From Dehalococcoidia bacterium (GTDB lineage: Bacteria > Chloroflexota > Dehalococcoidia > Lucifugimonadales > UBA3495), in assembly GCA_022821365.1 (NCBI GenBank), contig JAJEDS010000214.1, positions 1-40,314 of the forward strand: a DNA stretch of 40,314 bases, in the 5' to 3' direction. A program made the translations under genes and the position numbers. This document shows, piece after piece, positions 9,131-30,302 of the stretch. Every line of letters starts with the position of its first letter. Position 1 is the stretch's first letter. The notes beneath the pieces are model-generated. The model searched no databases. It worked only from the letters and a program-made list of their open reading frames with translations, and had not been told where the DNA came from.

Positions 9131-9265
9131 CAGGGCAATCGCGTTCTGAGGGTTATTTTGTACCCGGAGGCCGAAAGTGTCCCGAGCCTCAAGTAGCATC
9201 TATGTGAAACTCCGTGTTCTCTGCGCCCCTGCGGTTAAGGGATTCCTCAAAACGCGATTGCCCTG
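9131..9265. mobile_element. Miniature ISAs1-like element (MITE), 135 bp
   Basis: 21-bp TIR CAGGGCAATCGCGTTCTGAGG (9131-9151) versus the reverse complement of 9245-9265, one mismatch; contains a REP arm; no target-site duplication seen. Confidence 0.65.
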
Positions 9266-9282
9266 ACCTGCGCGCGTTGCGT

Positions 9283-9311
9283 TTGACTGCATTGGCCTTG
9301 CGTGTTAAAGT
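9283..9311 (+). promoter_or_regulatory. Probable sigma-70 promoter of the thi operon
   Basis: TTGACT (9283-9288), 17 nt, extended -10 TGT-TAAAGT (9306-9311), just upstream of the riboswitch. Confidence 0.55.
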
Positions 9312-9334
9312 TTGCTTCCAAACCAAATATAGAC

Positions 9335-9436
9335 TGTTCTGGCGGGAGCTTGGGCAAGCCAGGCTGAGAGGGTAGCCGAGAGTCGCTACCGACCGTCTGT
9401 ACCTGATACGGGTAATGCCGTCGCAGGGACAAGACG
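9335..9436 (+). ncRNA. TPP riboswitch (THI element)
   Basis: GGGAGC...GGCTGAGAGG...GACCG..GTACCTGATACGGGTAATGCCGTCGCAGGGA matches the TPP aptamer core (CUGAGA, CCUGAU, UAAUGC, CGxAGGGA); directly upstream of thiG. Confidence 0.93.
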
Positions 9437-9449
9437 CTGGACATTGAGC

Positions 9450-9478
9450 AACCGCCGGTTAGTTTAACGGCGGTTTTG
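9450..9478 (+). terminator. Riboswitch expression-platform terminator
   Basis: AACCGCCG/CGGCGGTT stem running into TTTTG, between the aptamer and the thiG RBS. Confidence 0.7.
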
Positions 9479-9510
9479 TCGTATTCAGCAAACCGGAAGG
9501 AGTAGCAGCG

Positions 9511-10302
9511 ATGCCGGACGACTTGGTAATTGGGGGCAAACACTTCAATTCCCGACTCATTGTGGGTACCGGTCGATACCGCACCAACGAGGAAATGGTT
9601 GAAGCCATCGAGGCTTCTGGCACGGAGATGGTTACCGTCGCCATTCGCCGCCTCAACCTCGACGACCCCACCCAGAAGACCATCTTGGACTACATCGACT
9701 GGTCCAGGTATAACATTCTGCCGAATACGGCCGGCTGCGCCACAGTGGAAGAGGCTATGTTTGTCGCAAGGCTGGGCCGCGAGGTCGCCAAAACCGACTT
9801 CGTCAAGCTGGAAGTCATCCCCGATCCCAAGTACCTGTTCCCCGACCCGGTTGGCACCCTGGAGGCGGCGCGGCAGCTGGTTCAGGAAGGCTTCATCGTC
9901 CTTCCCTACATCCACGCCGACCCCGTCCTGGCCCACCGGCTGGAGGATGTCGGTTGCGCCACGGTTATGCCCCTGGGCTCGGCCATCGGCTCCGGCCAGG
10001 GCATCCACACCGTCGAAGAGGTGCGCATCATCATCGAACAGGCCAAAGTACCGGTGGTGGTCGACGCTGGCCTGGCCGTCCCCTCCGACGCTTCCAAGGC
10101 CCTGGAAATGGGCGCTTCCGCGGTGCTGGTGAACACCGCCATCGCCCAGGCCGAAAACCCCGCGCAAATGGCCGAGGCCTTCAAGCTGGGCGTAGAGGGC
10201 GGACGAAAAGCCTACCTGGCCGGCCGAATCCCCACCCGGGCCTATGCTTCGGCCAGCAGCCCCACCGACGAGGTCCCGCAACCGGTAACGGCAGGCAGCT
10301 AG
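9511..10302 (+). CDS. thiG: Thiazole synthase
   Basis: [48 protein letters not shown]; GGAAGGAG RBS; TPP riboswitch upstream. Confidence 0.96.
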
Positions 10303-10306
10303 CGCC

Positions 10307-10957
10307 TTGGCTATTGCCCTGCCCGACCCCAGCCTCTGCCTGGTAACCGACCGCCACGTAGGGGACGAGTCCACCCTGGTCGAGCGGGTCGCACAGGCCG
10401 TGGCTGGAGGTGTTGACCTGGTCCAGTTGCGGGAAAAGGACCTGCACGGCGCGCAACTGCTGGACCTGGCAACCCGATTACGCCAGGCCATTGGTGACCG
10501 GGCGCTGTTGGTAATAAACGAACGGGTGGACGTGGCCGCCGCCCTGCCCGCCGACGGTGCCCAACTGGGGGAAGACGCAGTTCCGGTTTCGGCGGCCCGG
10601 AGCATCCTGGGGCCGGACAGGCTGATCGGCCGTTCCGTCCACTCAGTTGAAGGCGCGGAACGGGCCGTCCACGAAGGCGCAGATTTCCTGGTAGTGGGCA
10701 CAATGTTCCCCAGCCGGTCCCACCCGGGCGAGGAACCGGCCGGGCCCCGGTTGGTTGCACAGATAATCAAGAGCTGCTCACTGCCCGCCATTGGTATCGG
10801 CGGAATAACGTCGGAAAATTGCAGCCAGGTAATCGGCGCCGGCGCGATGGGTGTCGCCGTGATTACGGGCATCCTGGCCTCCCCCGACCCGGAAAAGGCC
10901 GCCCGACGGCTGAAGGAAGCGCTGGTGGCGGCCCGGGAAAAGCAGTCCTCGACATAA
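10307..10957 (+). CDS. thiE: Thiamine-phosphate synthase
   Basis: VQLREK, VINERVDVA, IGRSVHS, F.SRSHP, IGIGGI, GVAVI; TTG start directly after thiG. Confidence 0.9.
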   Translation: MAIALPDPSLCLVTDRHVGDESTLVERVAQAVAGGVDLVQLREKDLHGAQLLDLATRLRQAIGDRALLVINERVDVAAALPADGAQLGEDAVPVSAARSILGPDRLIGRSVHSVEGAERAVHEGADFLVVGTMFPSRSHPGEEPAGPRLVAQIIKSCSLPAIGIGGITSENCSQVIGAGAMGVAVITGILASPDPEKAARRLKEALVAAREKQSST

Positions 10958-10984
10958 ATTAGACCCTGTTGAAACGAGGCGAAT

Positions 10985-11197
10985 ATGCCTGAAATGATTA
11001 ACCTGATGGTTAACGGCAAGACCAGGGAGGTGGAGGAAGCCACCAATCTGGAAACCTACCTGACCGCCTTCGGGCTGGACCTCCAATTTGTGGCCGTGGG
11101 CTACAACGGCGAGGTAATCAAGAAGGAGTCCTTCGCCCAGGTAACCCTGAGGAACGGGGACACCCTGGAAATTGTGCGCCCGGTGGGCGGCGGATGA
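10985..11197 (+). CDS. thiS: Sulfur carrier protein ThiS
   Basis: 70 aa, VNG...VAVGYNGEVI...GDTLEIVRPVGGG with C-terminal Gly-Gly. Confidence 0.93.
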   Translation: MPEMINLMVNGKTREVEEATNLETYLTAFGLDLQFVAVGYNGEVIKKESFAQVTLRNGDTLEIVRPVGGG

Positions 11198-13603: not shown

Positions 13604-13750
13604 TAGCGAACATTCGTGCCTGTTCGTGGAAAAATCAACAAGACGCGATTGCCTTGCATCAAGCCGGCGCATATTGAACTAACTCCCGCATTTCCCGCTA
13701 TAATATGCCCCAACGCTACCCCCATCCCAATCCCTATTCCTGGAGGATTC

Positions 13751-15322
13751 ATGAAGTACGACGTGATAATCGTCGGCGGCGGCGCTGCCGGCTCGGTACT
13801 GGCCAGCCGTCTTGTTGAAGACCCCGGCACTTCCGTCCTGGTGCTGGAAGCCGGCAAGGACTATCCCGACCCCGACACCCTGCCCGACGAGATCAAGTTC
13901 GGCGGAACCAGGTTCGCCGAGTCTCCCGACTCGGAACACAACTGGGCCCTGCGCGGCACCATCACCGAGGAGCAGGGCGAAATCCACGTGGCCCAGGGAA
14001 AGGTCATTGGCGGCGGTTCTTCCATTAATGGCCAGGCCATGCAGCGGGCCCTGCCCGAGGACTTCGACAACTGGTCCGCCTGGGGAAACACCGACTGGTC
14101 CTACGAAAAGGTTCTTCCCTTCTTCCGCAAGATGGAGCGGGACCTGGACATCCAGGATGACTTTCACGGCACCGACGGACCCATTCCTGTGCGCCGGCGG
14201 CAGTCTACTCCCTCCCCCATCCAGAAGGCCTTCTATGACGCCTGCCTTGCCGAAGGTTACTCCTTCGTGGAGGACACCAACGGCGCCAACCCAACCGGCG
14301 TGGGCATCGCTCCCACCAACAACCTTGGCGGCGTCCGCATGAGTTCCGCCCTGGCCCACCTCAGTCCCCTGCGCCACCGCCTCAACCTTACGGTCCGCGG
14401 GGAAGTGTATGTTCAGAAAGTCTTGTTCGAGGGCCGCAAGGCCGTTGGCGTGGAGGCCGCAAGCGGCGGCGAGACCTTCCAGGTATTTGCGGACCGCGTG
14501 GTATTGTGTTCCGGAGCTATCAGGTCTCCCCAGTTGCTGATGCTCTCCGGCATCGGGCCCAGGGAGCAGCTTGAGGAGTTCGGCATTCCCGTCCTGCAGG
14601 AATCCCCCGGCGTGGGCCAGAGCCTCTGGAACCACCTGAGCGCCCACATCAACTACAAGGTCAAGAACGGGGTCAGCATGGAACCCAACCTGGACGGCGC
14701 CCATTACTCCCTCCACTACACCGCCGATGGTTCGGACGAGACCAACGACATGCTGCTCCGCACCAACACCGTGGTGGACGAGCGCGAGGAGCGGGTTCGC
14801 GGCGTCCGCACCCGTTACCATACCGGCGACGTGCCCCCGGAACAGTCCGCCCGTATGTCTTGCACCCTGGGCCTGCCCAAGGGCAGTGGCTTTGTCCGCC
14901 TGGCCTCGGCAGACCCCAGTGTCCAGCCCACTTTCAACTACCGCTACCTGCACAACCCTGAGGACATGCGCCGGGTACGGGACGGCATTCGCATGGGGGC
15001 CAGGCTCCTGGAGACCGAAGCCTACAACGATGTCTATGACTACCGCATCACCCCTACTGACGAGGAACTGAACAACGACGACGCCCTGGACCTCTACATC
15101 CGCAAGACCGTGGGCACCGCCCGCCACGTTTCCGGCACCTGCAAGATGGGTCCGGACAGCGACCCCATGGCGGTGGTGGACCAGCACTGCCGGGTGAAGG
15201 GCGTGGAGAACCTGTGGGTAGCCGACGCCTCGGTTGTGCCTCAGATCCCCCGGTCCGGCGGTCTTCACCCCACCGCGCTGATGATTGGCGAACGCGTGGT
15301 GGAGTGGGTCGCGGCGGGTTAG
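13751..15322 (+). CDS. GMC family FAD oxidoreductase (choline dehydrogenase/MftG-like), paralog 1
   Basis: IIVGGGAAG, GKVIGGGSSING, SPQLLMLSGIG, HVSGTCKMG, VADASV; ATG 13751 after GGAGG. Confidence 0.9.
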   Translation: MKYDVIIVGGGAAGSVLASRLVEDPGTSVLVLEAGKDYPDPDTLPDEIKFGGTRFAESPDSEHNWALRGTITEEQGEIHVAQGKVIGGGSSINGQAMQRALPEDFDNWSAWGNTDWSYEKVLPFFRKMERDLDIQDDFHGTDGPIPVRRRQSTPSPIQKAFYDACLAEGYSFVEDTNGANPTGVGIAPTNNLGGVRMSSALAHLSPLRHRLNLTVRGEVYVQKVLFEGRKAVGVEAASGGETFQVFADRVVLCSGAIRSPQLLMLSGIGPREQLEEFGIPVLQESPGVGQSLWNHLSAHINYKVKNGVSMEPNLDGAHYSLHYTADGSDETNDMLLRTNTVVDEREERVRGVRTRYHTGDVPPEQSARMSCTLGLPKGSGFVRLASADPSVQPTFNYRYLHNPEDMRRVRDGIRMGARLLETEAYNDVYDYRITPTDEELNNDDALDLYIRKTVGTARHVSGTCKMGPDSDPMAVVDQHCRVKGVENLWVADASVVPQIPRSGGLHPTALMIGERVVEWVAAG

Positions 15323-15442: not shown

Positions 15443-16411
15443 TCAGGCTGGTTCCTGAATAGGATAGTCGAAGTAGGCTTCCGTAATGAGGAAATGCAGC
15501 TCGTCGGCGCCCCCGGAGATATCTCGGAGCAGGGCAACCCGCTCCTCCTCGTCGGGCCATTCGTAGTTGATCATGGAGGACAGGCGGCCTACCAGCCGTT
15601 GCAGGGCTCGGCCGGAACGGGAGTAGGGGCCGCTGCCTATGGAGGCAATCTCTGACCCTATCAACCCCACGGATCGGCCAAGGGACTCAGGCAGCAGCGG
15701 GTCGCTGACCAACAGGTCCATCACCCGGTCGGGGAGCACAGCTACGGTGTAGGCGTGGTTGTACACTTCCAGCGCATAGAACACCCGCAGCAGCGAAGTC
15801 CAGTCCTCTTCGTGGAACTCCTGCTGGGAACTGGCGATGGCGGTGTCAATCTGGGACAACAGCAATGTCGCCGCACCCTGAGCCCGCTCCACCAGCCTGC
15901 CCAACTGCAGGAAGCTCCACCGGTCGTCGTGATACATGGTGCATTCAGCCAGACCGCCAAAGGTCTCGATATCGGTTACCAGCTCCTGGTAAAAGGCCCT
16001 GGGCTCCCATCGCCATACCGAGGCCATGTTCTGCTGCTGCAGCCGCAGGTAGCTCGCGTTAAGGCAAGTCCAGACTTCCGGGCTGATACAGTGGCGGGTA
16101 TGGCGGGCATTCTCTCTGCCCTGAGCGAAACAGCTGTAGACCGAACTGGGATTGGTGCGCTCAAAAGTCATGTCATCCGCCAGGGCAAAGGAGTCGGCCA
16201 GCACATACTCTTCATCGCCGAACAGCTGTATTTCACCGCCCGGCGGATCGCGCTGCACGTACTTGTATATCCGGTTCCAACCGAAGTGGATTTCACGCAC
16301 AGGCCGGTCCACCAGCGATTCCGATTGCAGCTGAAGCAAACGGCACAGGTTGCCGGCCCGCTCCAGGTATCGTCCCAGCCAGTAAAGGCTTTGTGCGCTG
16401 CGGGAAAGCAT
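15443..16411 (-). CDS. Alpha-E domain protein (DUF403)
   Basis: MLSRSAQSLYWLGRYLERA, ARENAR-like GRENARHTR, second ER motif FLQLGRLVERA; downstream of the ATP-grasp gene. Confidence 0.9.
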   Translation of the reverse strand: MLSRSAQSLYWLGRYLERAGNLCRLLQLQSESLVDRPVREIHFGWNRIYKYVQRDPPGGEIQLFGDEEYVLADSFALADDMTFERTNPSSVYSCFAQGRENARHTRHCISPEVWTCLNASYLRLQQQNMASVWRWEPRAFYQELVTDIETFGGLAECTMYHDDRWSFLQLGRLVERAQGAATLLLSQIDTAIASSQQEFHEEDWTSLLRVFYALEVYNHAYTVAVLPDRVMDLLVSDPLLPESLGRSVGLIGSEIASIGSGPYSRSGRALQRLVGRLSSMINYEWPDEEERVALLRDISGGADELHFLITEAYFDYPIQEPA

Positions 16412-16577
16412 TACATCCTCCGGGCATTATCTGCGTGTGTCCTGCCTAAGGCCGTGATTCCTACAACTTGGTCGCTTCTCCCTGAACAGGGGGACGTTCG
16501 GGACCGGAGCGATAGCGGGCAGTTCATTCGCCCGCACACTAAACAACTGTCGTGCCAGGTCTTGCGAGTGTGTCTTA

Positions 16578-16688
16578 GTATCTATCTCAAAACTGGTGCT
16601 TTGCACGTTAACAGGTTCTCGCGGCAACCTGTTCACCCCCACCCTGGCCCTCCCCGGTCAAAGTGGAGGGGACTTTTGAGATGGTTTC
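16578..16688. mobile_element. Miniature IS-ended element with REP hairpins
   Basis: Ends GTATCTATCTCAAAA and TTTTGAGATGGTTTC form a 12/15 inverted match, flanked by TTA on both sides; internal hairpins AACAGGTT..AACCTGTT and CCCTCC..GGAGGG. Confidence 0.5.
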
Positions 16689-18200
16689 TTAGTCCTCCGC
16701 CAGCACCCAGACGTCCTTGCCCCCGCCACCCTGGCTGGAGTTCACCACCAGGCTGCCCCTCCGCAGGGCAACCCGGCAAAAGGCACCCGGCACGATACGG
16801 GTCTGCAGCCCGTTCAAAATGAACGGTCTCAGGTCAACGTGGCGAGGTTCAAAGTTCCCCTCGATGAGGCATGGCGCCCGGGAAAAGGATTGTACCGGCT
16901 GAGCAATGAAGTCGGCGGGGTTCGCCCGCACGGCCTTGGCATACTCGTCGCGCTCTTCTTGAGTAGCATGAGGACCAATTATCATCCCGTACCCGCCGGA
17001 CTCCCCTACCCTCTTGACCACCAGTTCAGCCAGGTTGTCCAGCGTGAACTCCAGGTCCTCCGGTCTGCGGCACAGGTAGGTTTCCACGTTCTTCAGTATG
17101 GCTTCCTGGCCCAGGTAATACCGGATCATGTCCGGAACGTACACGTAAACGCTCTTGTCATCCGCCACGCCGGTACCCGGGGCGTTGGCCAGGGTCACGT
17201 TACCCGCGCGAGCCGCTTCGATGATTCCGGCCGCGCCCAGGAGCGAGTCCCGCCGGAAGACCTGCGGGTCCAGGAAGTCGTCGTCAATCCGCCGGTAGAT
17301 TACGTCTACCTGTCTCAGGCCCTCGGTGGTCCTCATGTACACCACCCGGTCCCGCACCACCAGGTCGCTCCCCTCAACCAGTTCCGCGCCAATCTCCCGC
17401 GCAAGGAACATGTGCTCGTAATATGCCGAGTTGTAAACACCCGGCGTCATAAGGGCCAGGGCGGGATCCGGTTTGCCGTTGGGAGACAGTTCACGGAGTG
17501 TAGCCTGCAAGGCCGCGCCGTACTGCTCCACCTCCTGCACCCGGGAGCTGCGGTACAAGCGGGGCAGGCTGGCCTTGGCCGCCTTACGGTTGGCTATCAT
17601 GTAGGAGACCCCGGAAGGCACCCTCAGGTTGTCTTCCAGGATACGAAACTCATCGTCGACCCTTATGACATCTGTGCCGCACACGGCCACCCAGCTGCCA
17701 TAGGGCTGCCTGAAGTCGCGCATTTCAGGACGGAACTGAGGACACTCCAGGATCATATCCGGCGGTATAACTCCGTCACTGATGATGCGGGCCGGCCCGT
17801 AAATGTCCTCCAGGAAGTTGTTGAGGGCCCTGACCCGCTGTTCCAGCCCCCGGGACAGAGTGTACCAGTCGGAAGCGGTGATTATCCGTGGTATGGGATC
17901 TACGGGAATGATCCTCTCTTCCGCCTCAGCATCACCGTAAACGGTGAAGGATATGCTCTCGTTGGAGAAAGTACGGTTCACCCGTCCCTGTATCGTGGCC
18001 AGTTCATTGGAGGAAAGTTCGGCCAGCGTATCGTGCAGGATTTGAGCGTGGGGGCGCGGCTCACCCCCGGGCAGGAACATTTCATCGTAAATGGATGGGT
18101 CGAGAATGTAATTGTCAAAGTTCACTGCGCCAGGGCCGCCTTCTGAGTAATCAAGTGTATCCGCTTCCACCGTACCCAAAATCCTTTGGCAATATACCAT
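16689..18200 (-). CDS. Circularly permuted type 2 ATP-grasp protein (DUF404/DUF407)
   Basis: YDEMF, LEDNLRVPSGVSY, TPGVYNSAYYEH, VDVIYRRIDDDFLDP, GTGVADDK, PRHVDLRPF, VVNSSQGGGGKDVWV. True start may be the GTG near 18125. Confidence 0.92.
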   Translation of the reverse strand: MVYCQRILGTVEADTLDYSEGGPGAVNFDNYILDPSIYDEMFLPGGEPRPHAQILHDTLAELSSNELATIQGRVNRTFSNESISFTVYGDAEAEERIIPVDPIPRIITASDWYTLSRGLEQRVRALNNFLEDIYGPARIISDGVIPPDMILECPQFRPEMRDFRQPYGSWVAVCGTDVIRVDDEFRILEDNLRVPSGVSYMIANRKAAKASLPRLYRSSRVQEVEQYGAALQATLRELSPNGKPDPALALMTPGVYNSAYYEHMFLAREIGAELVEGSDLVVRDRVVYMRTTEGLRQVDVIYRRIDDDFLDPQVFRRDSLLGAAGIIEAARAGNVTLANAPGTGVADDKSVYVYVPDMIRYYLGQEAILKNVETYLCRRPEDLEFTLDNLAELVVKRVGESGGYGMIIGPHATQEERDEYAKAVRANPADFIAQPVQSFSRAPCLIEGNFEPRHVDLRPFILNGLQTRIVPGAFCRVALRRGSLVVNSSQGGGGKDVWVLAED

Positions 18201-18472: not shown

Positions 18473-19960
18473 ATGCCATCAAATCAAGGTAGTACGTTGG
18501 GCTTAACGGCGCGGAACAAGATGAGTGCGACTTCTTTTGCAACTCTGGGGCTCACAGCAGCTCTGGCAATTGCAGTTGCCGCGGCCTTGGCTTTCCCCAT
18601 CCTTTTCTCCGTATCAGCCCAGGGACAGAACCTCAACTTTCAAAACAGCGAATGCCAGGGAGTCAGACACCACAACACCAAGATATGGGTAACTCCGGTA
18701 ACATCGGGCAACCCCCCAGTTCTTGATGAAAACACCATCGATTGGCTTGAAAACCCTTCGGGGACCAGAGGAATGATACTTTTCCGGGCAGTATCAAATG
18801 TAGACGAAGGAACTGTGGAACTAAATTGGAAAGGACGTAGTTACTGGGACTCGGATTACACAGGAGCGATTCCTACGGACGAAGCCGACGGTCGAGCCAC
18901 CGAGAATGTGGAATACTGGTATCAAATAGGCTGGGTAGGCAGAGGCTGGGAAGAAGCAAGAGAAAGAGGGCAGACAGATCCCATGATCGCCTGTTCCAGC
19001 ATAGTCCACAGCTCGTACCGTGGAAATGATGGCGAAGACACAACGGGAAAGGTAATACCCCACATTCCTGGCTCTCCACCTCCCAACTCCGCCCCGGTCC
19101 CAGGACCGACCGAAGATAACAACGAGGACAACGAGGACAACGAGGACAACGGCGACAACGGCGACAACGGCGACAGCGATGACAACGGCGACAGCGAGGA
19201 CAACGACGACGGGAATGGTGGAGGTAATGGTGGCGGCAGCGGGAACGAGGACGACAACGATGACCTGGAGCCGACTCCTGAACCGGACCCGGAACCCACG
19301 GCCTTGCCGCCGCCCACCGAGCCACCGCCGCCCACTGAACCACCGCCGCCTGTTCCTACTCCCGAACCGGAACCGACCGCGGCGCCCGATCAACCCGGCG
19401 GGCCCAGCGGGACACGGGACTCCACGGACGGCGGCGATGCGAGGGAGGTTTCAACGCTTACACCGGCGCCAACAAGCACGCCACTTCCATCAGCCACGCC
19501 GATTCCCACGCCGATGCCAGCGCCCGAACCTACGGCTACGCCTCTTCCCACGCCCACGCATACACCTACGCCTACGCCTACCGCAACCCCCACCTCAACC
19601 CCTACTCACACGCCAACAGCGACGGCCACTCGGAGTCCGGGCAACTTGCTCAGACCGCCAGCGGAAATGGTCCGATTCCCCACACCTACGTTGCAAGTAC
19701 GGGAAGCAGAAACCCAAGCTGTCGGCCCCGCTCCGGCTCCCGTGTCCACTCTGGCGCCGCCTGAAGAGGTAAACGGGGAAGGAGTCCAGCCGCAACGACC
19801 GGCGCTGCCGATAATAGGCGACGCGCTGCCACGGCTCAGGAACAACCTTGAAGCCATTGCCAGCAATCCCCGGGAGCGCATTACCCTGATTCTGCTTCTG
19901 GGCTGTGCCCTGCTAATTGCCCTTGGGATCTTTGTCTACCTACTGGTACGCCGCCGGTAG
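18473..19960 (+). CDS. Secreted, C-terminally anchored surface protein with Asp/Asn- and Pro/Thr-rich stalk
   Basis: N-terminal hydrophobic segment ending VSA-Q, about 140-aa globular region, low-complexity DN/PE/PT repeats, C-terminal TM helix plus RRR. Confidence 0.75.
   Translation: MPSNQGSTLGLTARNKMSATSFATLGLTAALAIAVAAALAFPILFSVSAQGQNLNFQNSECQGVRHHNTKIWVTPVTSGNPPVLDENTIDWLENPSGTRGMILFRAVSNVDEGTVELNWKGRSYWDSDYTGAIPTDEADGRATENVEYWYQIGWVGRGWEEARERGQTDPMIACSSIVHSSYRGNDGEDTTGKVIPHIPGSPPPNSAPVPGPTEDNNEDNEDNEDNGDNGDNGDSDDNGDSEDNDDGNGGGNGGGSGNEDDNDDLEPTPEPDPEPTALPPPTEPPPPTEPPPPVPTPEPEPTAAPDQPGGPSGTRDSTDGGDAREVSTLTPAPTSTPLPSATPIPTPMPAPEPTATPLPTPTHTPTPTPTATPTSTPTHTPTATATRSPGNLLRPPAEMVRFPTPTLQVREAETQAVGPAPAPVSTLAPPEEVNGEGVQPQRPALPIIGDALPRLRNNLEAIASNPRERITLILLLGCALLIALGIFVYLLVRRR
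19121..19210 (+). repeat. In-frame 9-bp tandem repeats
   Basis: (AACGAGGAC)x3 then (AACGGCGAC)x3 and degenerate copies encoding NED/NGD. Confidence 0.8.
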
Positions 19961-19962
19961 TG

Positions 19963-21846
19963 TTACGGCACGGCGGTTTCCGCCGGGATAGGTCCCGGTG
20001 ATTCCAGTTCAAAGGGCAGATTTACGATGAACTCGGCGTATTCGCCGTATACGGTTTCAACGGTCAGACTTCCGCCAGCCCTCCTCATCACATCGGCGGC
20101 AATGGGGAGGCCCAACCCTGCTCCGGAAGCGCCCTCCCGAGTTGAAAAGAAGGGATTGAAAATGTGCCCCACCACGTCATCGGCGATGCCGGTACCATTG
20201 TCCCGAAACCGCACTTCGAGAGAATCCCCGTCCGTCGAGCTCGAAATGTGGAGCCGAGGCCGGTAGTCCTGGTCCGTTCCTTCTGACTGCCGAATCCACA
20301 TCGCATAGCACGCGTTGGAGACCAGGTTGACCACCGCTTCCCCAAAGTCGTGCTCCACCAAAGAGACCTCGCCAACGTCCGGGTCCAGGTCGTACTGCAC
20401 CGACAAGTTTAACTCGGGATACTGGGCGACGAAGGCATCCTTCGCTACCTCGACGGCGCTGTGCACAGCAGAATTAAGTTCTACGGGCACCAGTTCGCCG
20501 CCAACCACACCCAGCCCACGCATGCGTTCAACGATGGCCAGCGCCCTTCCTCCGTTGGTCCTTATGCGGGTAAGACTGTCGGCCAGGTCCTCCTCCAGTT
20601 CGTCAACGGCTGCCCGGTCTTCATCGCTCATGGTATCCCGGTAAGAGTTAAGCACCTCTGAAAGTTCCTCGTACATTTCGACCGATACCTCGGCAAAGTT
20701 CTGCACAAAGTTCAGGGGATTGCTAATCTCGTGGGCAACGCCGGAGACAAGCTCGCCCAGGGCTGCCAGCTTTTCCTGGGCCACCAAGCGGTCCTGCATC
20801 CTTTGCAGCTCAGCGTTCGCCTCCTGCAATTCGCTGTATAACTTCTCCACCAGGTTCAGGCGTTGAACCTCCAGGGCCTGCTCCCGGAAGACTTCCAGGG
20901 CGTGTGCAAGGTCGCCAATTTCATCCCTGCCTACCCCGGGGACGGGGGTCTCCAGATCACCGTCGGCCATTCCCCGCATGCGCTCGGACAACCTGGTTAG
21001 GGGCCGGACCAGCCCGTTACCAACCAGCAGCCACGCGGTGACCGTGGCCATCCCCACACTGACCAGGCTGATGACCGCCAGCAGAACCCTGCCCTGGTCA
21101 AAACTGGCCACGGACGAGTCCAGCGCCTGGTTGGAACTAGCCCGGGCGTCAACCAAGAGGTCGACCAAGGCGATTTCAAGAACCCTGTCCGCGTCATCCA
21201 ACTGAACGGAGAGTTCGCCAATTCGATCCTCCAGGGCAAGTTGCTGAGCTCGAACTTCGAAGACCCGCTGTCCCAATTCTATGGAACGCGTGTCCACAGG
21301 AGGAGCGCTGCTAAACTCCTGCCACGAACTTTCCAGTTCGGCCTGGGTTTCCGCGGTAAACATCCTAACCAAGGCGGGGGCCGCTGACGGTTCGACCCCG
21401 GATGCCAGTTCTGCGCTTAACTCTGCCGCCGCTGTTTCGCTGTCCTGCCTGGCTCGTTGGGCAATTGCCAGCTTATCTATGACGTCGGTCAGATCGTAAG
21501 CCAGGTCCTGGGACTGGGTTGCCAAACCGGTTAGCGGAGGCGCACTTGCTGCTACTGACAAATGGTCTTCCAGGTTGCCAAGGGCCTCGCTTATTTGTTC
21601 TTCAACAATTACCCCGGTTGTGGCCTCCCCTCCAAGACTTCGTAGCCGCTCCCCTTCTCGAATGGCGGCCCAGGAAGCTTCCAGTACCGGCACGGATTGG
21701 GTACGCACCCGATGGCTGGCATCCCCGCTTTGCTCAAAGTAGTAGACCCCTACTGCACTGGACACTAGGGTCAGGAGAACGGCGAACCCCAGTGCCAGGT
21801 AGAGTTTGGCGCCTATGCGACGCCAGATACCCAAAAGGAAATTCAT
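19963..21846 (-). CDS. Membrane sensor histidine kinase (2 TM, HAMP, HisKA, HATPase_c)
   Basis: HAMP RPLTRLSERM...GRDEIGDLA; H-box GVAHEISNPLNFV; N-box NLVSNA; G1 DNGTGI; F-box IFNPFFST; G2 GAGLGL. Confidence 0.92.
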   Translation of the reverse strand: MNFLLGIWRRIGAKLYLALGFAVLLTLVSSAVGVYYFEQSGDASHRVRTQSVPVLEASWAAIREGERLRSLGGEATTGVIVEEQISEALGNLEDHLSVAASAPPLTGLATQSQDLAYDLTDVIDKLAIAQRARQDSETAAAELSAELASGVEPSAAPALVRMFTAETQAELESSWQEFSSAPPVDTRSIELGQRVFEVRAQQLALEDRIGELSVQLDDADRVLEIALVDLLVDARASSNQALDSSVASFDQGRVLLAVISLVSVGMATVTAWLLVGNGLVRPLTRLSERMRGMADGDLETPVPGVGRDEIGDLAHALEVFREQALEVQRLNLVEKLYSELQEANAELQRMQDRLVAQEKLAALGELVSGVAHEISNPLNFVQNFAEVSVEMYEELSEVLNSYRDTMSDEDRAAVDELEEDLADSLTRIRTNGGRALAIVERMRGLGVVGGELVPVELNSAVHSAVEVAKDAFVAQYPELNLSVQYDLDPDVGEVSLVEHDFGEAVVNLVSNACYAMWIRQSEGTDQDYRPRLHISSSTDGDSLEVRFRDNGTGIADDVVGHIFNPFFSTREGASGAGLGLPIAADVMRRAGGSLTVETVYGEYAEFIVNLPFELESPGPIPAETAVP

Positions 21847-22064
21847 GAACAGGTCCTCCGGGGCCTTTCCTTACTTTGGTAATGGCAAGGCTGGCGATAT
21901 CAGGCAGCTCTCGCTGCAAGGGGTCGAGACAGAATCGCCCAAATTATTATGGCAGAAGAGGCCATGTCGTTCTGCAAGACCTGCTAGTTGTCAGGCGGCC
22001 TGTGTCAGGTAGCTGCCAGTCCGTTATGGAAATGCCCTCGAGATCGGCCACAGGCTGGTTTCGA

Positions 22065-23816
22065 CTAGTCGACGTCGGGCGGCCCAACGCGAACCGTAAT
22101 TATGTCAGTGTCGTGATACTGCTGATGCCTCACCGATGTAGCATAATTGCGCAGCAACCGCAGGGAGAGGTCGTGCTCAGTAGGTGGCAGGGTATCGTAT
22201 TGCTGTAATTGGTGCACCTGGTCCTCAATATTTGCGCCACTGCTCCCGCCGATGAATTCCAGGTCCGCCATTTGTCCATCGCTGGAAGCCAGAACTATCA
22301 GGCGGCGGTCGTCATTTCCATCTATGCCGTCGTCATCCGAAAGGAGTCCCTCCAAATCGAGCGGGGCCAGTGTAAGCAGGGTCTCTTCTGCAACTGCTCC
22401 TAATCTGTCCTTCATGGCATTGTTCCAGCCGCGCCGGTCCGCAAATTTGTTCACGAACTCGGTAAGGTCGGGCAGGGCGTCTATGTTCAACTGCGACTGG
22501 AACCGCATCTGCCTGGGGCTGGTCAACTCTATGTACAAAATCATGATAATGGCCGCGAGTCCCCCGGTAGTAATGCCACTCTTTAGCAGAGCATTGACCA
22601 CGCCGCCCAGGTCCGGCAAGGCGAACAAGCCAAACTGGAAGGCAGCGCCCAACCAGAAACAGACTCCTGCCACCACAATCTTCTGGCGATTAGGCTCGGA
22701 CTGGATGATAGTCCTGGCCCCGTCCACCAGCAGATTGCCCGTCACCAGCAAAAGGTAACCCGTCACCACCGGAGCTGGAATAGTGCCCAGCACGCTGGAA
22801 ATCTTGGGTGAGAAGGCGACGAGAACAAAGACCAGGCCGATGAGGTACCCGACCCTCCGTGACGCCATGCCTGTGGTCTGGGTGAACGAGACGGCCCCGG
22901 GGTTTATCACAGTGGGGACGGCTCCGAAGATGCTGGCCATCAAATTGGAGACGCCGGTTCCGGCCATGGCGCCCTGGACCTGCCTGAAGTCGACCGCCTG
23001 GGAACCCCTTCTTGACACCCTTTGGTGGGCAATGGATTCCCCATTTGTCTGGATGGAGATAATCACGCCAAGAAAAAGGAAAGAGGGCAGCAATGTCCAG
23101 AAGGGGATACCCAGGTGCAGTCCAAAACCGGGCCACTGGTCGGGCAATCCCACCCATGGCGCCCGCAATACGGGTTCAAAGTCATAGATTCCCAGCGCCG
23201 CGGCGGTGATGCACCCCGCAATGATTCCAATAACCGGGCCCCAGAGGCGAAGCATTGGCCACCCACGCAAGGTCAGAGCGGCAACGATTATCAGGGTTAT
23301 CAGTGCCGTTGCCGGCCCTTTTTCAGGCTCGGCCTGTGCCGCTTCGTCCAGCAACGCAAACACTACGGAGGCAAGGGTAATGGAGAGAATCATCACTACC
23401 GTACCACCGACTGTAGGGGTGATGACCTTGCGAAGGATAAAGAGCCACCTGGAGATGGCCAACTGGGCCAGGGCTGACACGAAGACAAGGGCCATCAATG
23501 TAGCCGGCCCCCCATCTACCACCGCGGTTATGCAGAAGGGAATGGAAAAAGCCGCGGTGAACATGGGTAGCAGCGCACCGGCGCCGACGGGGCCCAACCT
23601 GCGGACCTGGACCAAAGTTGACACCCCAACTACCAGGAGAGAGGCGAACATCATCCACGACAGGTAAGAGTTTCCCAGGCCCGACGCCCTGGCAACCACT
23701 ACCGGAGTCACCAGAAGTGTAACAGTGGCCATTAAGCTGAACTGAAACCCGTACCGGAGAGTTGGAAGAAGAGGTGGGGTCTCCTGGGCTTCATAGACCG
23801 GATTCTGACTGGCCAT
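22065..23816 (-). CDS. NCS2 (xanthine/uracil permease-like) protein with fused C-terminal degenerate RsbW/HATPase-like domain
   Basis: Multi-TM core with STLVQ..RLGPVGAG.L, ITPTVGGTVV, TGMASRRVG, FSPKI...IPAPV, SGITTGG; about 150-aa soluble C-terminal extension; ATG 23816 with GGAGG RBS. Confidence 0.8.
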   Translation of the reverse strand: MASQNPVYEAQETPPLLPTLRYGFQFSLMATVTLLVTPVVVARASGLGNSYLSWMMFASLLVVGVSTLVQVRRLGPVGAGALLPMFTAAFSIPFCITAVVDGGPATLMALVFVSALAQLAISRWLFILRKVITPTVGGTVVMILSITLASVVFALLDEAAQAEPEKGPATALITLIIVAALTLRGWPMLRLWGPVIGIIAGCITAAALGIYDFEPVLRAPWVGLPDQWPGFGLHLGIPFWTLLPSFLFLGVIISIQTNGESIAHQRVSRRGSQAVDFRQVQGAMAGTGVSNLMASIFGAVPTVINPGAVSFTQTTGMASRRVGYLIGLVFVLVAFSPKISSVLGTIPAPVVTGYLLLVTGNLLVDGARTIIQSEPNRQKIVVAGVCFWLGAAFQFGLFALPDLGGVVNALLKSGITTGGLAAIIMILYIELTSPRQMRFQSQLNIDALPDLTEFVNKFADRRGWNNAMKDRLGAVAEETLLTLAPLDLEGLLSDDDGIDGNDDRRLIVLASSDGQMADLEFIGGSSGANIEDQVHQLQQYDTLPPTEHDLSLRLLRNYATSVRHQQYHDTDIITVRVGPPDVD

Positions 23817-24097
23817 GGCCAACCCTGCCTCCGGAACCAGGTTTCTTTTGCTGGGCCAAGTCTGCCAGAACAATGCCTCGCCACGCAAGTGTTAATCCGT
23901 GGATACAAATTTGCTGGGCCAAACAGGTCCGGAATAGATGTGGTACACCTTCCAGCCCTAATCTTGGGAAGAATAGACTATTCCGGTCCTAAAGTGATTA
24001 ATAATCGGTATTGCATTGAAGTCAATGATTGGCTGCCATATACTCCAACCGCATAGTCATTTTTGTGTATCGAAACAATTTTCGGAGAATATGCACC

Positions 24098-25651
24098 ATG
24101 AAATACGACGTAATCGTAATTGGAGCCGGTTCGGGCGGTTGCGTGGTGGCTGGCCGACTCTCGGAAGATCCCGCCAAGTCAGTATTGCTACTTGAGGCAG
24201 GACCGGATTATCCGGACTTCGAGACGTACCCCGACGACCTGAAGTACGGGTACAGCGCGACCGCATCGACTCCGGGGGCGCCCCACAACTGGTCGTTCCA
24301 GGCTCAGGCGCGGCCGGAGCAGGATGAGCCAATGCCGGTACCCAGGGGCAAAGTAGTAGGAGGGACGAGCGCCATCAATGGCCAGGTGATCCTGAGAGGA
24401 GTACCGGAAGACTTCGATTCGTGGGCGGATATGGGCAATGATGAATGGAGCTTCATAAGGGTGCTGCCCTATCTGAGAAAGCTGGAGACGGACACGGACA
24501 TTCACGACGACTTTCATGGCGGCGACGGCCCTATACCGGTCCGCCGCTTTGCCAGGGAGGAGTGGCTGCCCTTCCAGCAGGCCTTTTACCAGGCGACCCG
24601 AGATGCGGGACACCCGGATGATCCGGATATGAACCATCCGGAATCGGGCGGCGTTGGACCAATACCCATGAACAACCCCAACGGCGTGCGCATGAGCACC
24701 GGTCTTACCTATATCAACCCCAACCGGCACCGCCTGAACCTGACCGTCCGCGGCAATGTTGTGGTCCACCGCATACTCATTGAGGACGGTCGGGCCGTGG
24801 GAGTTGAAGCGGAAAGCGGTGGCGAGATTTTCCGTGTGGAAGCGGACCAGATTGTATTGAGTGGAGGGGCCATTGCCTCGCCCCAGATCTTGATGCTATC
24901 CGGCGTAGGGCCGTCCGCCCATCTACGGGAAGTGGGCATTGACGCGGTACAGGACCTGCCGGGCGTAGGTCAAAACTTTCGGGACCACCCAATGGCGCCT
25001 GTGCGCTTGCGCGTTCGTGACGACTTCCCCCAGGATGCCGAGGCCCCGAGAATTCAGGCAGCCCTGCGCTACACAGCAGCAGGGTCGGGGCTCCGCAACG
25101 ACATGCAGATCTTACCTTCCTCCTTCTCCTTCCCACTCGGAGGAGACCCGCTGGCAGGGGAGGGGGTTCGTTTTTCGTGCATATTGGAACTGGCCGAGGG
25201 CAAGGGCTCAGTTACCCTGACATCCGCCAGTCCCCATGACCAGCCCAGGCTCTACTACGGATTCCTGGAAGAGGAATTCGACCGGGAACGACTGAGAGAG
25301 GCGGTCCGGTTCTGCTTCGACCTGCTCAGGCACGAAGCCTTTGAGAATATTGTGGCGGGCCCGCTGACCCCGACATACGAGGACCTGGAATCGGAAGAGT
25401 CTCTGGACGACTGGCTGAACCACAACGTCACCACTTCGCAACACCTGGCGGGCACGTGCAAAATGGGGCCCGAATCGGATCCCATGGCCGTCGTCGACCA
25501 GTATTGCCGCGTAAGGGGCCTGGACGGCCTCTGGGTGGCCGATACCTCAGTCATGCCCAACGTGGTCCGCGCCAACACCAATACCACCGCCATTGCGATT
25601 GCGGAACGGGTTGCGGACTGGGTTAAGGAGCACTGGGCCGAAGCAGACTAG
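24098..25651 (+). CDS. GMC family FAD oxidoreductase (choline dehydrogenase/MftG-like), paralog 2
   Basis: IVIGAGSGG, PRGKVVGGTSAING, SPQILMLSGVG, HLAGTCKMG, RANTN; ATG 24098. Confidence 0.9.
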   Translation: MKYDVIVIGAGSGGCVVAGRLSEDPAKSVLLLEAGPDYPDFETYPDDLKYGYSATASTPGAPHNWSFQAQARPEQDEPMPVPRGKVVGGTSAINGQVILRGVPEDFDSWADMGNDEWSFIRVLPYLRKLETDTDIHDDFHGGDGPIPVRRFAREEWLPFQQAFYQATRDAGHPDDPDMNHPESGGVGPIPMNNPNGVRMSTGLTYINPNRHRLNLTVRGNVVVHRILIEDGRAVGVEAESGGEIFRVEADQIVLSGGAIASPQILMLSGVGPSAHLREVGIDAVQDLPGVGQNFRDHPMAPVRLRVRDDFPQDAEAPRIQAALRYTAAGSGLRNDMQILPSSFSFPLGGDPLAGEGVRFSCILELAEGKGSVTLTSASPHDQPRLYYGFLEEEFDRERLREAVRFCFDLLRHEAFENIVAGPLTPTYEDLESEESLDDWLNHNVTTSQHLAGTCKMGPESDPMAVVDQYCRVRGLDGLWVADTSVMPNVVRANTNTTAIAIAERVADWVKEHWAEAD

Positions 25652-28174: not shown

Positions 28175-29893
28175 TCATACCAGGAAATGCAACTGGGCCA
28201 GGCTGAGCCTCTCTGCCGGGGGCACGGCAGCGATTTCCCCGTCAACCCGCACCTGGTAGGAATCCGGGTCCACTTCAATCGCCGGCATGGCATCGTTGCG
28301 GACCATCTGGCGCTTGGTGATGTGGCGGCACCCCTGCACCGGCTCCACCCGCTTGGCCAACCCCAGGCCCCGGTGGACGCCGGCATCGTATGCCGCTCGA
28401 GAAATGAAGGTAAGAGACGTAGCCGACACTGCCTTGCCCAGCGCCCCGAACATGGGCCGGTAGAAGGAAGGTTCGGCAGTGGGTATGGAGCCGTTGGGGT
28501 CGCCCATCACCGACCAGGCAATGATCCCGCCCTTGATGATGAGCTTGGGCTTGGCCCCGAAGCTGCCGACGGGCCAGAGCACTATGTCTGCCAACTTGCC
28601 CGGTTCCAGGGACCCCACCAGGTGAGATATTCCATGGGTAACGGCCGGGTTGATGGTCAGCTTGGCCAGGTAGCGCAGCACCCGGAAGTTGTCGTGGTCG
28701 GGCGAGTCTTCGGGCAGCTTGCCCTTGAACTGGCGCATCTTGTCCGCAGTCTGGAACAGGCGAGTGAAGTTCTCTCCCACCCGGCCCATGGCCTGGGAGT
28801 CCGACGAGTACATGCTGATGACGCCCAGGTCGTGCAGCACGTCTTCGGCAGCCATGGTCTCGGGGCGGATGCGGCTCTCGGCGAAGGCCACGTCCTCGGG
28901 CACCCGGGGGCTCAGGTGGTGGCACACCATCAGCATATCCATGTGCTCGGCCAGGGTGTTGACCGTGTAGGGACGGGTGGGGTTGGTGGAAGACGGCAGG
29001 ACGTTCAGTTCCGCTGCAATCCTGATAATGTCCGGAGCGTGGCCGCCGCCGGCGCCCTCGGTGTGGTAGGTGTGGATGGCCCTGCCCGCGATGGCGGCAA
29101 TGGTGTCCTCGACGAACCCGGCCTCGTTCAGGGTGTCGGTGTGGATGGCCACGGGCACGTCGTACCGGTCGGCCACCTCCAGGCACCGGTCGATGGCGGC
29201 GGGGGTCGTGCCCCAGTCCTCGTGCAGCTTCAGCCCGCTGGCCCCGGCTTCCAGTTGCTCCTCCAACGGAGCGGCGATGCTGGCGTTGCCCTTGCCCAGC
29301 AGGCCCCAGTTGACCGGCAGGGCCTCGGCGGCTTCCAGCATGCGGGCAATGTTCCAGGGACCGGGAGTGCAGGTGGTGGCGTTGGTGCCGTCGGCGGGAC
29401 CGGTGCCGCCACCAATCATGGTGGTGATGCCATTGGAAAGGGCGTGCCATACCTGCTGGGGAGAAATCATGTGGATGTGAGCGTCTATGCCCCCGGGCGT
29501 GGCAATGAGATGCTCGCCGGCGATAACCTCGGTCCCGGCCCCCACCACCATGTCCGGGTGAACCCCGTCCATCACGCCGGGGTTGCCGGCCTTTCCGATG
29601 GCTACGATGCGGCCTGCCTTGACACCGATGTCAGCCTTGGTGATGCCCAGGACCGGGTCCATGATTATGGCGTTGGTGATCACAAGGTCCAGGGCGCCGT
29701 CCCGGCTGGTGGCTTCCGGGGCCTGGCCCATGCCGTCCCGCGCCGTCTTTCCCCCGCCGAAGACCAGTTCATCGCCGTAGGTGAGCAAATCCCGTTCCAC
29801 CTGGCAGACCAGCGAGGTGTCGGCCAGGCGGAAGCGATCACCCACAGTGGGGCCGTACAGTTCAACGTACTGCTGCCGGCTGATGCGCGCCAT
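28175..29893 (-). CDS. ureC: Urease alpha (catalytic) subunit
   Basis: Ni ligands present: [50 protein letters not shown]; ATG 29893. Confidence 0.97.
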
Positions 29894-29894
29894 G

Positions 29895-30302
29895 CTAATT
29901 CTCCCCCTGGGTGTCGGACTCTGCAGTGGGCAGGTGGGCAAATCCCCTCCGTTCCATATCGGCCAGGGCCCCCGTTCGCACCTGCGGCGAGTCCAGGCTG
30001 CCACCGGCAAGCCCGTTCAGGCCGTGGACCCGGCGGTCGCCCCCGATGGCAACCAGGGTTACGTCCTTGCGGTCGCCGGGTTCAAAGCGGACCGCGGTAC
30101 CGGCGGGAATGTCTAGCCTCATACCGTATGCCGCCTCCCGGTCGAAACGCAGGGCCCGGTTGGCCTCGAAGAAGTGGAAGTGGGAACCCACCTGGATGGC
30201 CCGGTCGCCGGTATTCCATACCGGCAGGGCTACCGTTGGCCGCCCCGAGTTAATTTCCACGGGCTCGTCGGAAGGGATGTAGTGAGCGGATGGGTTGCTC
30301 AT
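29895..30302 (-). CDS. ureB: Urease beta subunit
   Basis: [36 protein letters not shown]. Confidence 0.96.

Follow-up and report, generated by a model that had tools for sequence, protein, structure and literature searches.

The window analysed here, that is, the whole stretch of DNA of 40,314 nucleotides (nt) at positions 1 to 40,314 of contig JAJEDS010000214.1 (assembly GCA_022821365.1, Dehalococcoidia bacterium), carries on its reverse strand a gene for a protein of 583 amino acids (aa) that joins a permease core of the NCS2/NAT family to a C-terminal tail predicted to resemble the anti-sigma-factor kinases RsbW and SpoIIAB. We are highly confident of this two-part architecture, which a first-pass annotation made from the sequence alone had proposed and which is borne out by the PF00860 match of the core and the RsbW-like predicted fold of the tail behind it. 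The gene and its two parts are as follows.

22065..23816, reverse strand: permease-tail gene, 583 aa, with its stop codon at 22065-22067 and its ATG at 23814-23816.
22521..23771, reverse strand: NCS2/NAT transmembrane core, residues 16-432, with 14 predicted helices (PF00860, AlphaFold2 (AF2) and Foldseek).
22068..22520, reverse strand: predicted RsbW/SpoIIAB-like (HATPase_c_2-like) alpha/beta sandwich tail, residues 433-583 (AF2, Foldseek and sub-threshold PF13581).

The longest open reading frame (ORF) at the gene, 22065..23888 on the reverse strand, runs to 607 aa from a TTG, the alternative start at 23888 adding 24 aa. The ATG is preceded at about 11 nt by a GGAGG, and the 583-aa version fits the lengths of homologues (576-635 aa). 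Renewed translation confirmed the coordinates given for the parts of the gene. An Rfam scan of the window at the gathering threshold gave two matches, both described further below and neither of them a riboswitch or leader 5' of the gene, and promoter and terminator scans of 21700-24200 returned counts not above those of shuffled sequence.

The core is matched by Pfam PF00860 (Xan_ur_permease) over residues 20-392 with an E-value of 8.9e-36 and 123.8 bits against a cut-off of 27. The only NCBIfam model passed is the broad NF037981 'purine/pyrimidine permease' (45.2 bits, cut-off 40), while pbuX (TIGR03173, 176.7 against a cut-off of 414.15), ncs2 (TIGR00801, 135.4 against 291.8), uracil permease (NF007995, 51.9 against 477) and RutG (TIGR03616, 31.5 against 758.65) are not reached. 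The full-length AF2 model, built with 45 aligned homologues (predicted local distance difference test score (pLDDT) 78.1, predicted template modelling score (pTM) 0.71), places short strands within transmembrane segments TM3 (residues 85-87) and TM10 (302-304), as in the 7+7 inverted-repeat fold. A Foldseek search of the PDB at full length ranks UapA (5i6c, E 1.3e-15), UraA (8omz, template modelling score 0.81-0.82) and SVCT1 first, with SLC26 (E about 1e-8), AZG and SLC4 carriers at lower ranks. The protein thus has the PF00860 match, the predicted 14-helix 7+7 fold and the TM3/TM10 strands in common with known NCS2/NAT carriers (UraA, XanQ, UacT, UapA and SVCT1 of SLC23), but it is about 18-20% identical to them, has the TM1 His, TM8 Glu and TM10 [Q/E]N replaced, and bears a folded C-terminal domain of 150 aa that is absent from E. 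coli UraA (429 aa), XanQ (466) and UacT (482).

In UraA, UapA and XanQ the residues at issue in TM1, TM8 and TM10 serve to bind the nucleobase or the proton. Their counterparts in the window protein were located by sequence alignment, with the E. coli K-12 record as the UraA reference.

23739..23744, reverse strand: TM1 Q25-F26, replacing the QH of UapA and UraA.
23037..23051, reverse strand: TM8 QTNGE, residues 256-260, replacing ExxGD (UapA) or ExxGH (UraA).
22869..22916, reverse strand: TM10 signature region PTVINPGAVSFTQTTG, residues 301-316, aligned to PNTTYGENIGVMAITR of UraA.

In TM1, GFQFSL stands opposite GLQHAL of UapA and LQHLFAM of UraA. In TM8, SIQTNGESIA is aligned to ACECIGDVTA of UapA and AEHVGH of UraA, pairing Q256 with E241 and E260 with H245 of UraA; the counterpart Glu of UapA is E356. 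The TM10 stretch matches UraA 284-299 without a gap and sets G307-A308 opposite E290-N291, a register that is not unique, as one HMMER alignment to UapA is gapped so that N305 faces an Asn. The NCS2 signature of this segment is [Q/E/P]-N-x-G-x-x-x-x-T-[R/K/G]; where UraA has E-N-I-G-V-M-A-I-T-R the window protein reads G-A-V-S-F-T-Q-T-T-G, of which only the Thr and the final position, Gly for Arg, fit. All three departures that the first-pass annotation had read as a non-canonical site, namely QF for QH, QTNGE for ExxGD and GA for [Q/E]N, are therefore found on alignment to UapA and UraA, the last with a slightly ambiguous register against UapA.

The changes are also conserved in relatives. 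Of 146 full-length relatives, 143 have Q25 and 124 have F26; in TM8 the counts are 122 for Q256, 123 for N258 and 131 for G259, with residue 260 being Glu in 74, Ala in 50 and Asp in 12; and in TM10 they are 145 for P301, 121 for G307, 143 for T315 and 141 for G316. This conservation argues that the altered pocket reflects neither chance nor decay. Since the characterised nucleobase-binding residues are missing from it, the substrate is probably neither xanthine nor uracil nor urate.

The tail begins 4-5 residues beyond TM14 in the AF2 models, and neither Pfam nor NCBIfam matches its residues 433-583 at E<=1. Modelled by AF2 from a 72-row alignment (pLDDT 81.7, pTM 0.76), it shows, in tail numbering, the elements b1 (9-14), a1 (17-34), a2 (38-55), b2 (76-85), b3 (88-97), a3 (102-109), a4 (121-130), b4 (133-139) and b5 (142-149). 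Foldseek returned 20 PDB matches at E<=1e-3, and the top chains (ranks 1-16) are UsfX (8ih8, 8jzt), SpoIIAB (1tid, 1l0o, 1th8, 1til, 1thn) and RsbW (6m36, 6m37), with E-values from 1.7e-7 (8ih8_C) to 2.8e-5 and target-normalised template modelling scores of 0.65-0.80 (0.80 for 6m36/6m37); from rank 19 (E about 1e-3 and weaker) catalytic domains of histidine kinases predominate. The profile HATPase_c_2 (PF13581) is matched by 9 of 36 tail relatives at E<=10 and by 5 of 35 at E<=0.05, all below the cut-off of 27.4 bits; the best of them, P0144, reaches E 2.2e-4 and 21.7 bits, its residues 73-188 running collinear with positions 4-114 of the 127 in the profile. Among protein-language-model neighbours in the ESM-Atlas, the HATPase_c_2 set holds 17 of the 30 nearest clusters, and the best of these clusters has HATPase_c_2 in 15% of its members.

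The tail is thus predicted to adopt the Bergerat alpha/beta sandwich with the element order of SpoIIAB, a fold supported by three partly independent lines, that is, the AF2 model with its Foldseek matches, the Pfam matches in relatives and the language-model neighbours. The first-pass annotation had seen an RsbW/SpoIIAB layout in the last ~150 aa and had let it stand or fall with Bergerat-fold similarity; similarity to UsfX, SpoIIAB and RsbW is what Foldseek gave. Two further comparisons carry no weight here. In hhalign, the tail alignment was matched to the catalytic domain of the histidine kinase encoded next to the permease at a probability of 0.9%, which we do not rely on, and the b2-b3 hairpin opposite the hairpin before the kinase's DNGTG is not used as evidence. 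A complex prediction with two copies of the tail, run without controls, scored 0.00 against a mark of 0.42 and speaks neither way on dimerisation.

In GHKL proteins ATP and Mg2+ are bound by the N, G1 and G2 motifs. We counted the corresponding tail positions over 72 sequences, taking the register from the order of secondary-structure elements and not from a residue-level structural alignment, which places the three regions in the window protein as listed.

22368..22397, reverse strand: tail helix a2, AVAEETLLTL, residues 474-483, the N-box helix by fold position.
22218..22268, reverse strand: tail b3 and start of a3, ADLEFIGGSSGANIEDQ, residues 517-533, the G1-box region by position.
22113..22169, reverse strand: tail a4-b4, LSLRLLRNYATSVRHQQYH, residues 550-568, the G2-box region by position, with no Gly.

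The family reads R-L-x-A-[AV]-x-E-E-T-L-L-x-L in helix a2, L-E-F-[VI]-[AS]-[AG]-x-x-x-x-N-[LI]-E-D in the G1 region and S-L-R-L-L-R-H-Y-A in a4. The N-box Asn is absent (Asn at tail positions 51-55 in 0, 0, 0, 1 and 0 of 72), as is DxGxG (Asp at tail positions 93-97, after b3, in 0/72), and in place of a Gly-rich G2 box there is no tail column with Gly in at least 60% of the sequences. The loss of the N-box Asn, the DxG and the Gly-rich loop, noticed at first in the single protein, is therefore family-wide. As a consequence canonical ATP-Mg binding by the tail is very unlikely, and, to judge from the missing motifs, the tail would be kinase-dead.

What the tail has kept are 15 polar residues, each found in 53-72 of the 72 sequences and situated on a2, b3, the start of a3, a4, b4 and the b4-b5 turn. 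With the number of sequences after each residue, these are the following.

Conserved polar residues, a2 part: R43 68, E49 (=E477) 71, E50 (=E478) 72.
Conserved polar residues, continued: E92 (=E520) 69, N101 (=N529) 71, E103 55, D104 (=D532) 62.
Conserved polar residues, continued: S123 (=S551) 70, R125 (=R553) 69, H129 61.
Conserved polar residues, continued: H136 (=H564) 71, Q138 53, Y139 (=Y567) 61, H140 (=H568) 54, D143 63.

Identity to the window protein in 23 distant full-length relatives is no lower in the tail than in the core, at 40% (45% without two variable loops) against 36%. The tail is conserved at least as well as the core and retains its polar residues, which argues that it is functional and not decaying.

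The distribution of the tail was followed by two routes. When 1.84 billion cluster representatives (50% identity clusters) were searched exhaustively by HMMER with residues 429-583, 476 clusters were matched at E<=1e-3, 213 of them also at E<=1e-10, and lengths and architectures were judged from the best 150 of the 476. Of these, 25 are full-length proteins (569-650 aa), with the tail C-terminal in 25/25; the other 125 measure 77-489 aa and mostly start within the last helices or within the domain. We considered and rejected the idea that the short matches (77-300 aa) are free-standing tail proteins: we take them to be fragments, as 9 of 30 short or odd matches scanned hold a partial PF00860, P0171 (131 aa) clusters at 90% with a member of 489 aa, and in 80/80 of the genomic loci described below the tail lies in a permease gene. 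No longer fused form (1022-2915 aa) was seen among 1279 candidates, which is weak evidence. Three odd architectures came to light: P0213 (235 aa) has a complete PAS domain (10-106) and a tail (116-230) with no permease, and would, if real, be a soluble sensor context for the tail; P0140 (Thiolase_N fragment and tail) and P0156 (DctM fragment and tail) appear chimeric. All three look like rare or chimeric calls.

The second route was a scan of one genome per species across 185,579 species with the pattern VRHQQYH[DGE], which matched at least 608 stretches, at least 589 of them confirmed by tblastn, and the locus analyses concern the best 80 of these at least 589 loci. Dehalococcoidia/Chloroflexota metagenome-assembled genomes (MAGs) account for 71 of the 80, and the remaining 9 come from Gammaproteobacteria (3), Rhodospirillales (2), Vicinamibacteria/-ales (3) and Binatia (1). 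The family accordingly extends over Chloroflexota, Pseudomonadota, Acidobacteriota and Binatota, most of it in Dehalococcoidia. Core and tail occur together in 80/80 loci, 75 recognized via ORF clustering and 5 via tblastn; L014 and L025 among the latter are intact, and in L007, L018 and L074, from long-read MAGs, the permease (~6700-8460) is spread over two or three frames, breaks that may be assembly indels or pseudogenes. A local hidden Markov model of the tail matched 80 of 1191 locus ORFs, all of them permeases. In public records the relatives are named 'hypothetical protein' or, for a 90%-cluster member of P0045 at NCBI, 'purine/pyrimidine permease'.

Within this family the pocket varies. 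The window protein belongs to class A (QF / Q-x-N-G-[EA] / PN.I[NH]PG..SFTQ.TG); class B (Q[FALY] / E-T-[IV]-G-D / PNTTYS[ST]S) retains the canonical TM8 motif; class C has QG / K-x-x-[SG]-D, and a proteobacterial variant has QP / QVNGD. Permeases of classes A, B and C all bear the tail, so that the pocket diversifies while the tail stays constant. In some genomes two tail-bearing permeases with different pockets (e.g. ETIGD beside QANGE) are adjacent or a few genes apart, as in the pairs listed.

L045, 4813-6570 and 6837-8492: tail-bearing paralogue pair.
L029, 5424-8462 and 13093-15234: tail-bearing paralogue pair.
L077, 6690-8441 and 10115-11884: tail-bearing paralogue pair.
L021, 2-838 and 1070-2752: tail-bearing paralogue pair.

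The tail is present in both members of each of these four pairs, and the classes differ within the pair in L045 (B and A) and L029 (C and A), which suggests that these genes arose by duplication and have since diverged in specificity while the tail stayed the same. Two maximum-likelihood trees of the core were computed, one of 101 rows with UraA as outgroup and one of 65 rows with UraA, XanQ and UacT, from which 2 long rows were dropped and in which class A was thinned. In both, class A forms a nested clade (Shimodaira-Hasegawa-like approximate likelihood ratio test support 99) and class B falls into two of the unresolved basal lineages; the trees are quick ones with long outgroup branches and at most three outgroups, all from E. 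coli. Because the outgroups have the TM8 Glu in common with class B, the parsimonious reading of these sequences would be that the tail was acquired first and TM8 was rewritten later in the lineage of the window protein.

Taken together, these results lead us to propose that the gene product would be a secondary transporter of the NCS2/NAT (UraA/UapA) fold with an altered pocket and a regulatory pseudokinase tail, in the manner of SLC26 and its STAS domain; to this statement as a whole we give even chances. The tail would descend from the RsbW/SpoIIAB anti-sigma-factor serine kinases and would have lost their ATP/Mg2+ motifs. NCS2 termini are cytoplasmic in the UraA and UapA structures, and the tail would then be cytoplasmic as well and lie beneath the gate domain. 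Its former ATP-lid/pocket face may bind something, whether this is a part of the carrier exposed to the cytoplasm, some soluble protein or a small ligand, and such binding could couple transport to a cytoplasmic signal without phosphorylation. By analogy the tail would be, for this NCS2 clade, the counterpart of STAS in SLC26/SulP. Both halves of the proposal have precedents: the kinase-negative RsbW homologues RsbW1 and RsbW3 of M. smegmatis act by binding in partner switching (PMC7693655), and PMC6497670 describes SLC26 as having the 7+7 architecture in common with SLC23, plus a regulatory STAS domain.

Several observations weigh against this proposal. The window's own tail has no Pfam match even at E<=10, and a sequence-profile search of the PDB with the tail alignment gave nothing significant (best, GAL4 at E 0.02). 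Two tail loops, 486-501 and 527-551, are modelled with low confidence at full length, and the conserved residues are assigned to the former ATP pocket by secondary-structure position only. In about a third of close relatives neither TM8 position carries an acidic residue (260 is Ala in 50/146), which is odd for proton coupling of the UraA type. Finally, no partner gene is conserved nearby in 75 loci and the window, and the context therefore gives no pointer to a binding partner of the tail.

The same context bears on an alternative in which the protein would be a transceptor or membrane-bound partner switch. Here the carrier would sense its substrate and the dead RsbW-like tail would capture or release a STAS antagonist or sigma factor encoded elsewhere, altering transcription. 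The STAS partner docks around the nucleotide pocket of SpoIIAB, and the conserved polar residues of the tail lie, by secondary-structure position, on the elements around that pocket. The closest predicted structural relatives of the tail are anti-sigma factors that work by partner binding, its conservation equals that of the core, and the kinase-negative RsbW homologues are functional binders (PMC7693655). Against this, genes for STAS (PF01740), SpoIIE/PP2C or sigma factors number 0 among 41 representatives of recurrent neighbour clusters, 74 singleton neighbours at +-1 and 94 at +-2; the adjacent kinase is not conserved; neighbourhoods are variable and mostly metabolic; and differently-sited paralogues within one genome look more like a transporter family. 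Paralogues with differing sites fit working transporters that share a regulatory tail at least as well as they fit a sensor. We therefore hold the alternative to be unlikely, and quite unlikely in its most specific form, a new transceptor class that would be the mirror image of SLC26-STAS, in which the carrier cycle gates the hold of the tethered dead anti-sigma domain on a STAS protein or sigma factor. If that form were true, substrate availability would be read directly as transcription with no phosphorylation, and paralogues of different pocket classes would channel different substrates to a common output.

The neighbour tables on which these counts rest were made with a crude ORF caller and cover 75 loci and the window, 5 of the 80 loci being left out. 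Next to the permease gene lie two genes of interest.

24029-25651, forward strand: GMC oxidoreductase, divergent from the permease.
19963..21846, reverse strand: HAMP-HisKA-HATPase_c histidine kinase, 218 nt downstream of the permease and probably not part of a unit with it.

The first-pass annotation had set the permease beside this orphan kinase and a nitrogen-scavenging region, and a link to either is not supported by the gene context. The kinase cluster occurs in three loci only (the window, L006 and L017), that is, in 2/75 of the others, and is missing from L001, the nearest relative with 87% tail identity, where the permease is directly followed by an ATP-grasp/Alpha-E pair. Farther off in the window lie ureD/G/F, a gene for the urease alpha subunit, a glutamine synthetase gene and a urea-type ABC system; a functional link to this region was rejected, as it is kept only in the closest relatives. 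A look through the neighbourhoods for STAS, SpoIIE/PP2C or a conserved kinase, suggested at the same time, turned up none of them, and one DUF4325 STAS-like protein. This last, at L041 (4893-5993, reverse strand), has 367 aa, carries the DUF4325 'STAS-like' domain at its C-terminus and shows motifs that resemble the N-box and G1 box; its gene stands on the strand opposite to the permease, at a distance of two genes upstream, and it is the sole STAS-like neighbour in the loci scanned. Regular expressions for the N-box and G1 motifs found no genuine RsbW-like gene in the 80 loci, only histidine kinases and this DUF4325 protein. The neighbours as a whole are highly variable and mostly metabolic, with luciferase-like monooxygenase (10 loci), DUF502 (8), MBL-fold hydrolase (6), methyltransferase (5), PIN protein (4), DUF1800/DUF1501 and FAD and GMC oxidases recurring.

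A second alternative places a ligand in the tail itself: the remodelled ATP pocket would bind another small molecule or a metal and thereby allosterically open or close the carrier. The nearly invariant E477/E478, E520, N529, D532, R553, H564, Y567 and H568 on a2, b3, a3, a4 and b4 would suit such a site, and their conservation is above what a mere dimerisation pad would lead one to expect. The tail has no Gly-rich loop and no known ligand motif, though, and the idea overlaps with the proposal of a regulated transporter and does not exclude it; as a separate explanation we find it quite doubtful. A purely structural appendage, which would aid folding, dimerisation or membrane insertion and play no regulatory or signalling role, is less probable again and in our view very unlikely. 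The tail does start directly after TM14, beside the region by which UraA and UapA dimerise, but 15 conserved polar residues of surface type and a conservation above that of the core exceed the needs of a spacer. That the protein is an ordinary purine/pyrimidine permease with an incidental extension, as the pass of NF037981 and the NCBI name would have it, is highly improbable given scores far below the pbuX, ncs2 and uracil permease cut-offs, the replacement of the TM1 His, TM8 Glu and TM10 [Q/E]N, and an extension that is a conserved folded domain.

The proposed transporter with a pseudokinase tail may be compared with three kinds of known system. With the RsbW/SpoIIAB/UsfX kinases (PF13581) the tail shares the predicted fold, the element order and the weak collinear Pfam matches seen in relatives, and loss of kinase function has its precedent in RsbW1 and RsbW3 of M. 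smegmatis (PMC7693655). Those proteins are, however, soluble and of ~140 aa, whereas the domain of the window protein is fused to a membrane carrier, stays below the Pfam threshold, lacks the ATP motifs and belongs to a family with no STAS or sigma partner gene among the neighbours scanned. With SLC26/SulP-STAS carriers the protein has in common the 7+7 superfold and one cytoplasmic domain of regulatory type directly after TM14, taken from the same partner-switching toolkit, STAS being the fold of the antagonist and the window tail that of its anti-sigma partner. The difference is that the core is PF00860 and not PF00916, that no STAS is matched and that a Bergerat sandwich is appended; the resemblance is one of layout only, and a STAS-like function of the tail would be our analogy. 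The third kind comprises transceptors and transporter-linked sensors such as yeast Gap1, Pho84 and Mep2 and bacterial LysP-CadC, DctA-DcuS and BceAB-BceS. Here too a carrier is joined to, or works with, a module of signalling type, but those are systems in which the output partner is known.

We found no description of a fusion of NCS2 with an RsbW/SpoIIAB-like domain in the literature searched, which most subscription journals lay outside, and the case is one of known folds in a domain combination not found described, in a large family. The 7+7 carriers of SLC4, SLC23/NCS2 and SLC26 form a major transporter superfamily. STAS is the fold of the anti-sigma antagonist, and the NCS2 branch studied here bears the fold of that antagonist's binding partner, without ATP motifs. 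Of the 7+7 carriers, the SLC26/SulP branch is described with an added regulatory STAS domain (PMC6497670). The family offers a testable case of a pseudokinase domain that regulates or reports on an elevator transporter, as well as natural pocket variants for the study of NCS2 specificity, and it gives a reason against transferring the annotation 'purine/pyrimidine permease' to these Dehalococcoidia genes.

Some further observations concern the surroundings of the gene. The divergent arrangement of GMC oxidoreductase and permease is kept in L001 and L002, and in L003 a member of the same cluster stands four genes downstream; the window has a second GMC-family FAD oxidoreductase paralogue at 13616-15322 (forward strand). 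The circularly permuted ATP-grasp and Alpha-E pair at 15443-18200 (reverse strand) is also found, at most a few genes from the permease, in the closest relatives L001, L003, L015 and L017 (clusters 15 and 36), with no functional link to the permease evident. In the window the pair is separated from the permease by the histidine kinase and a Pro-rich protein of 495 aa, whereas in L001 the two are adjacent. This 495-aa protein, encoded at 18473-19960 on the forward strand, has no Pfam match and shows a hydrophobic N-terminal segment, an acidic repeat rich in N/D/E/G, a long Pro/Thr-rich stretch and a C-terminal hydrophobic anchor.

Elsewhere in the window, a thiamine pyrophosphate (TPP) riboswitch (RF00059, 63.8 bits) at 9332-9446 on the forward strand lies directly upstream of homologues of thiG and thiE at 9511-10299 and 10307-10954 on the same strand. 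On the opposite strand an ORF of 599 aa at 9247-11046 is matched by no Pfam family and is unlikely to be a gene. The Rfam match '5_ureB_sRNA' (63.3 bits) at 29451-29736 on the forward strand runs antisense within the urease alpha gene (28175-30010, reverse strand), and it most likely reflects the conservation of the urease coding sequence rather than a gene for a small RNA.

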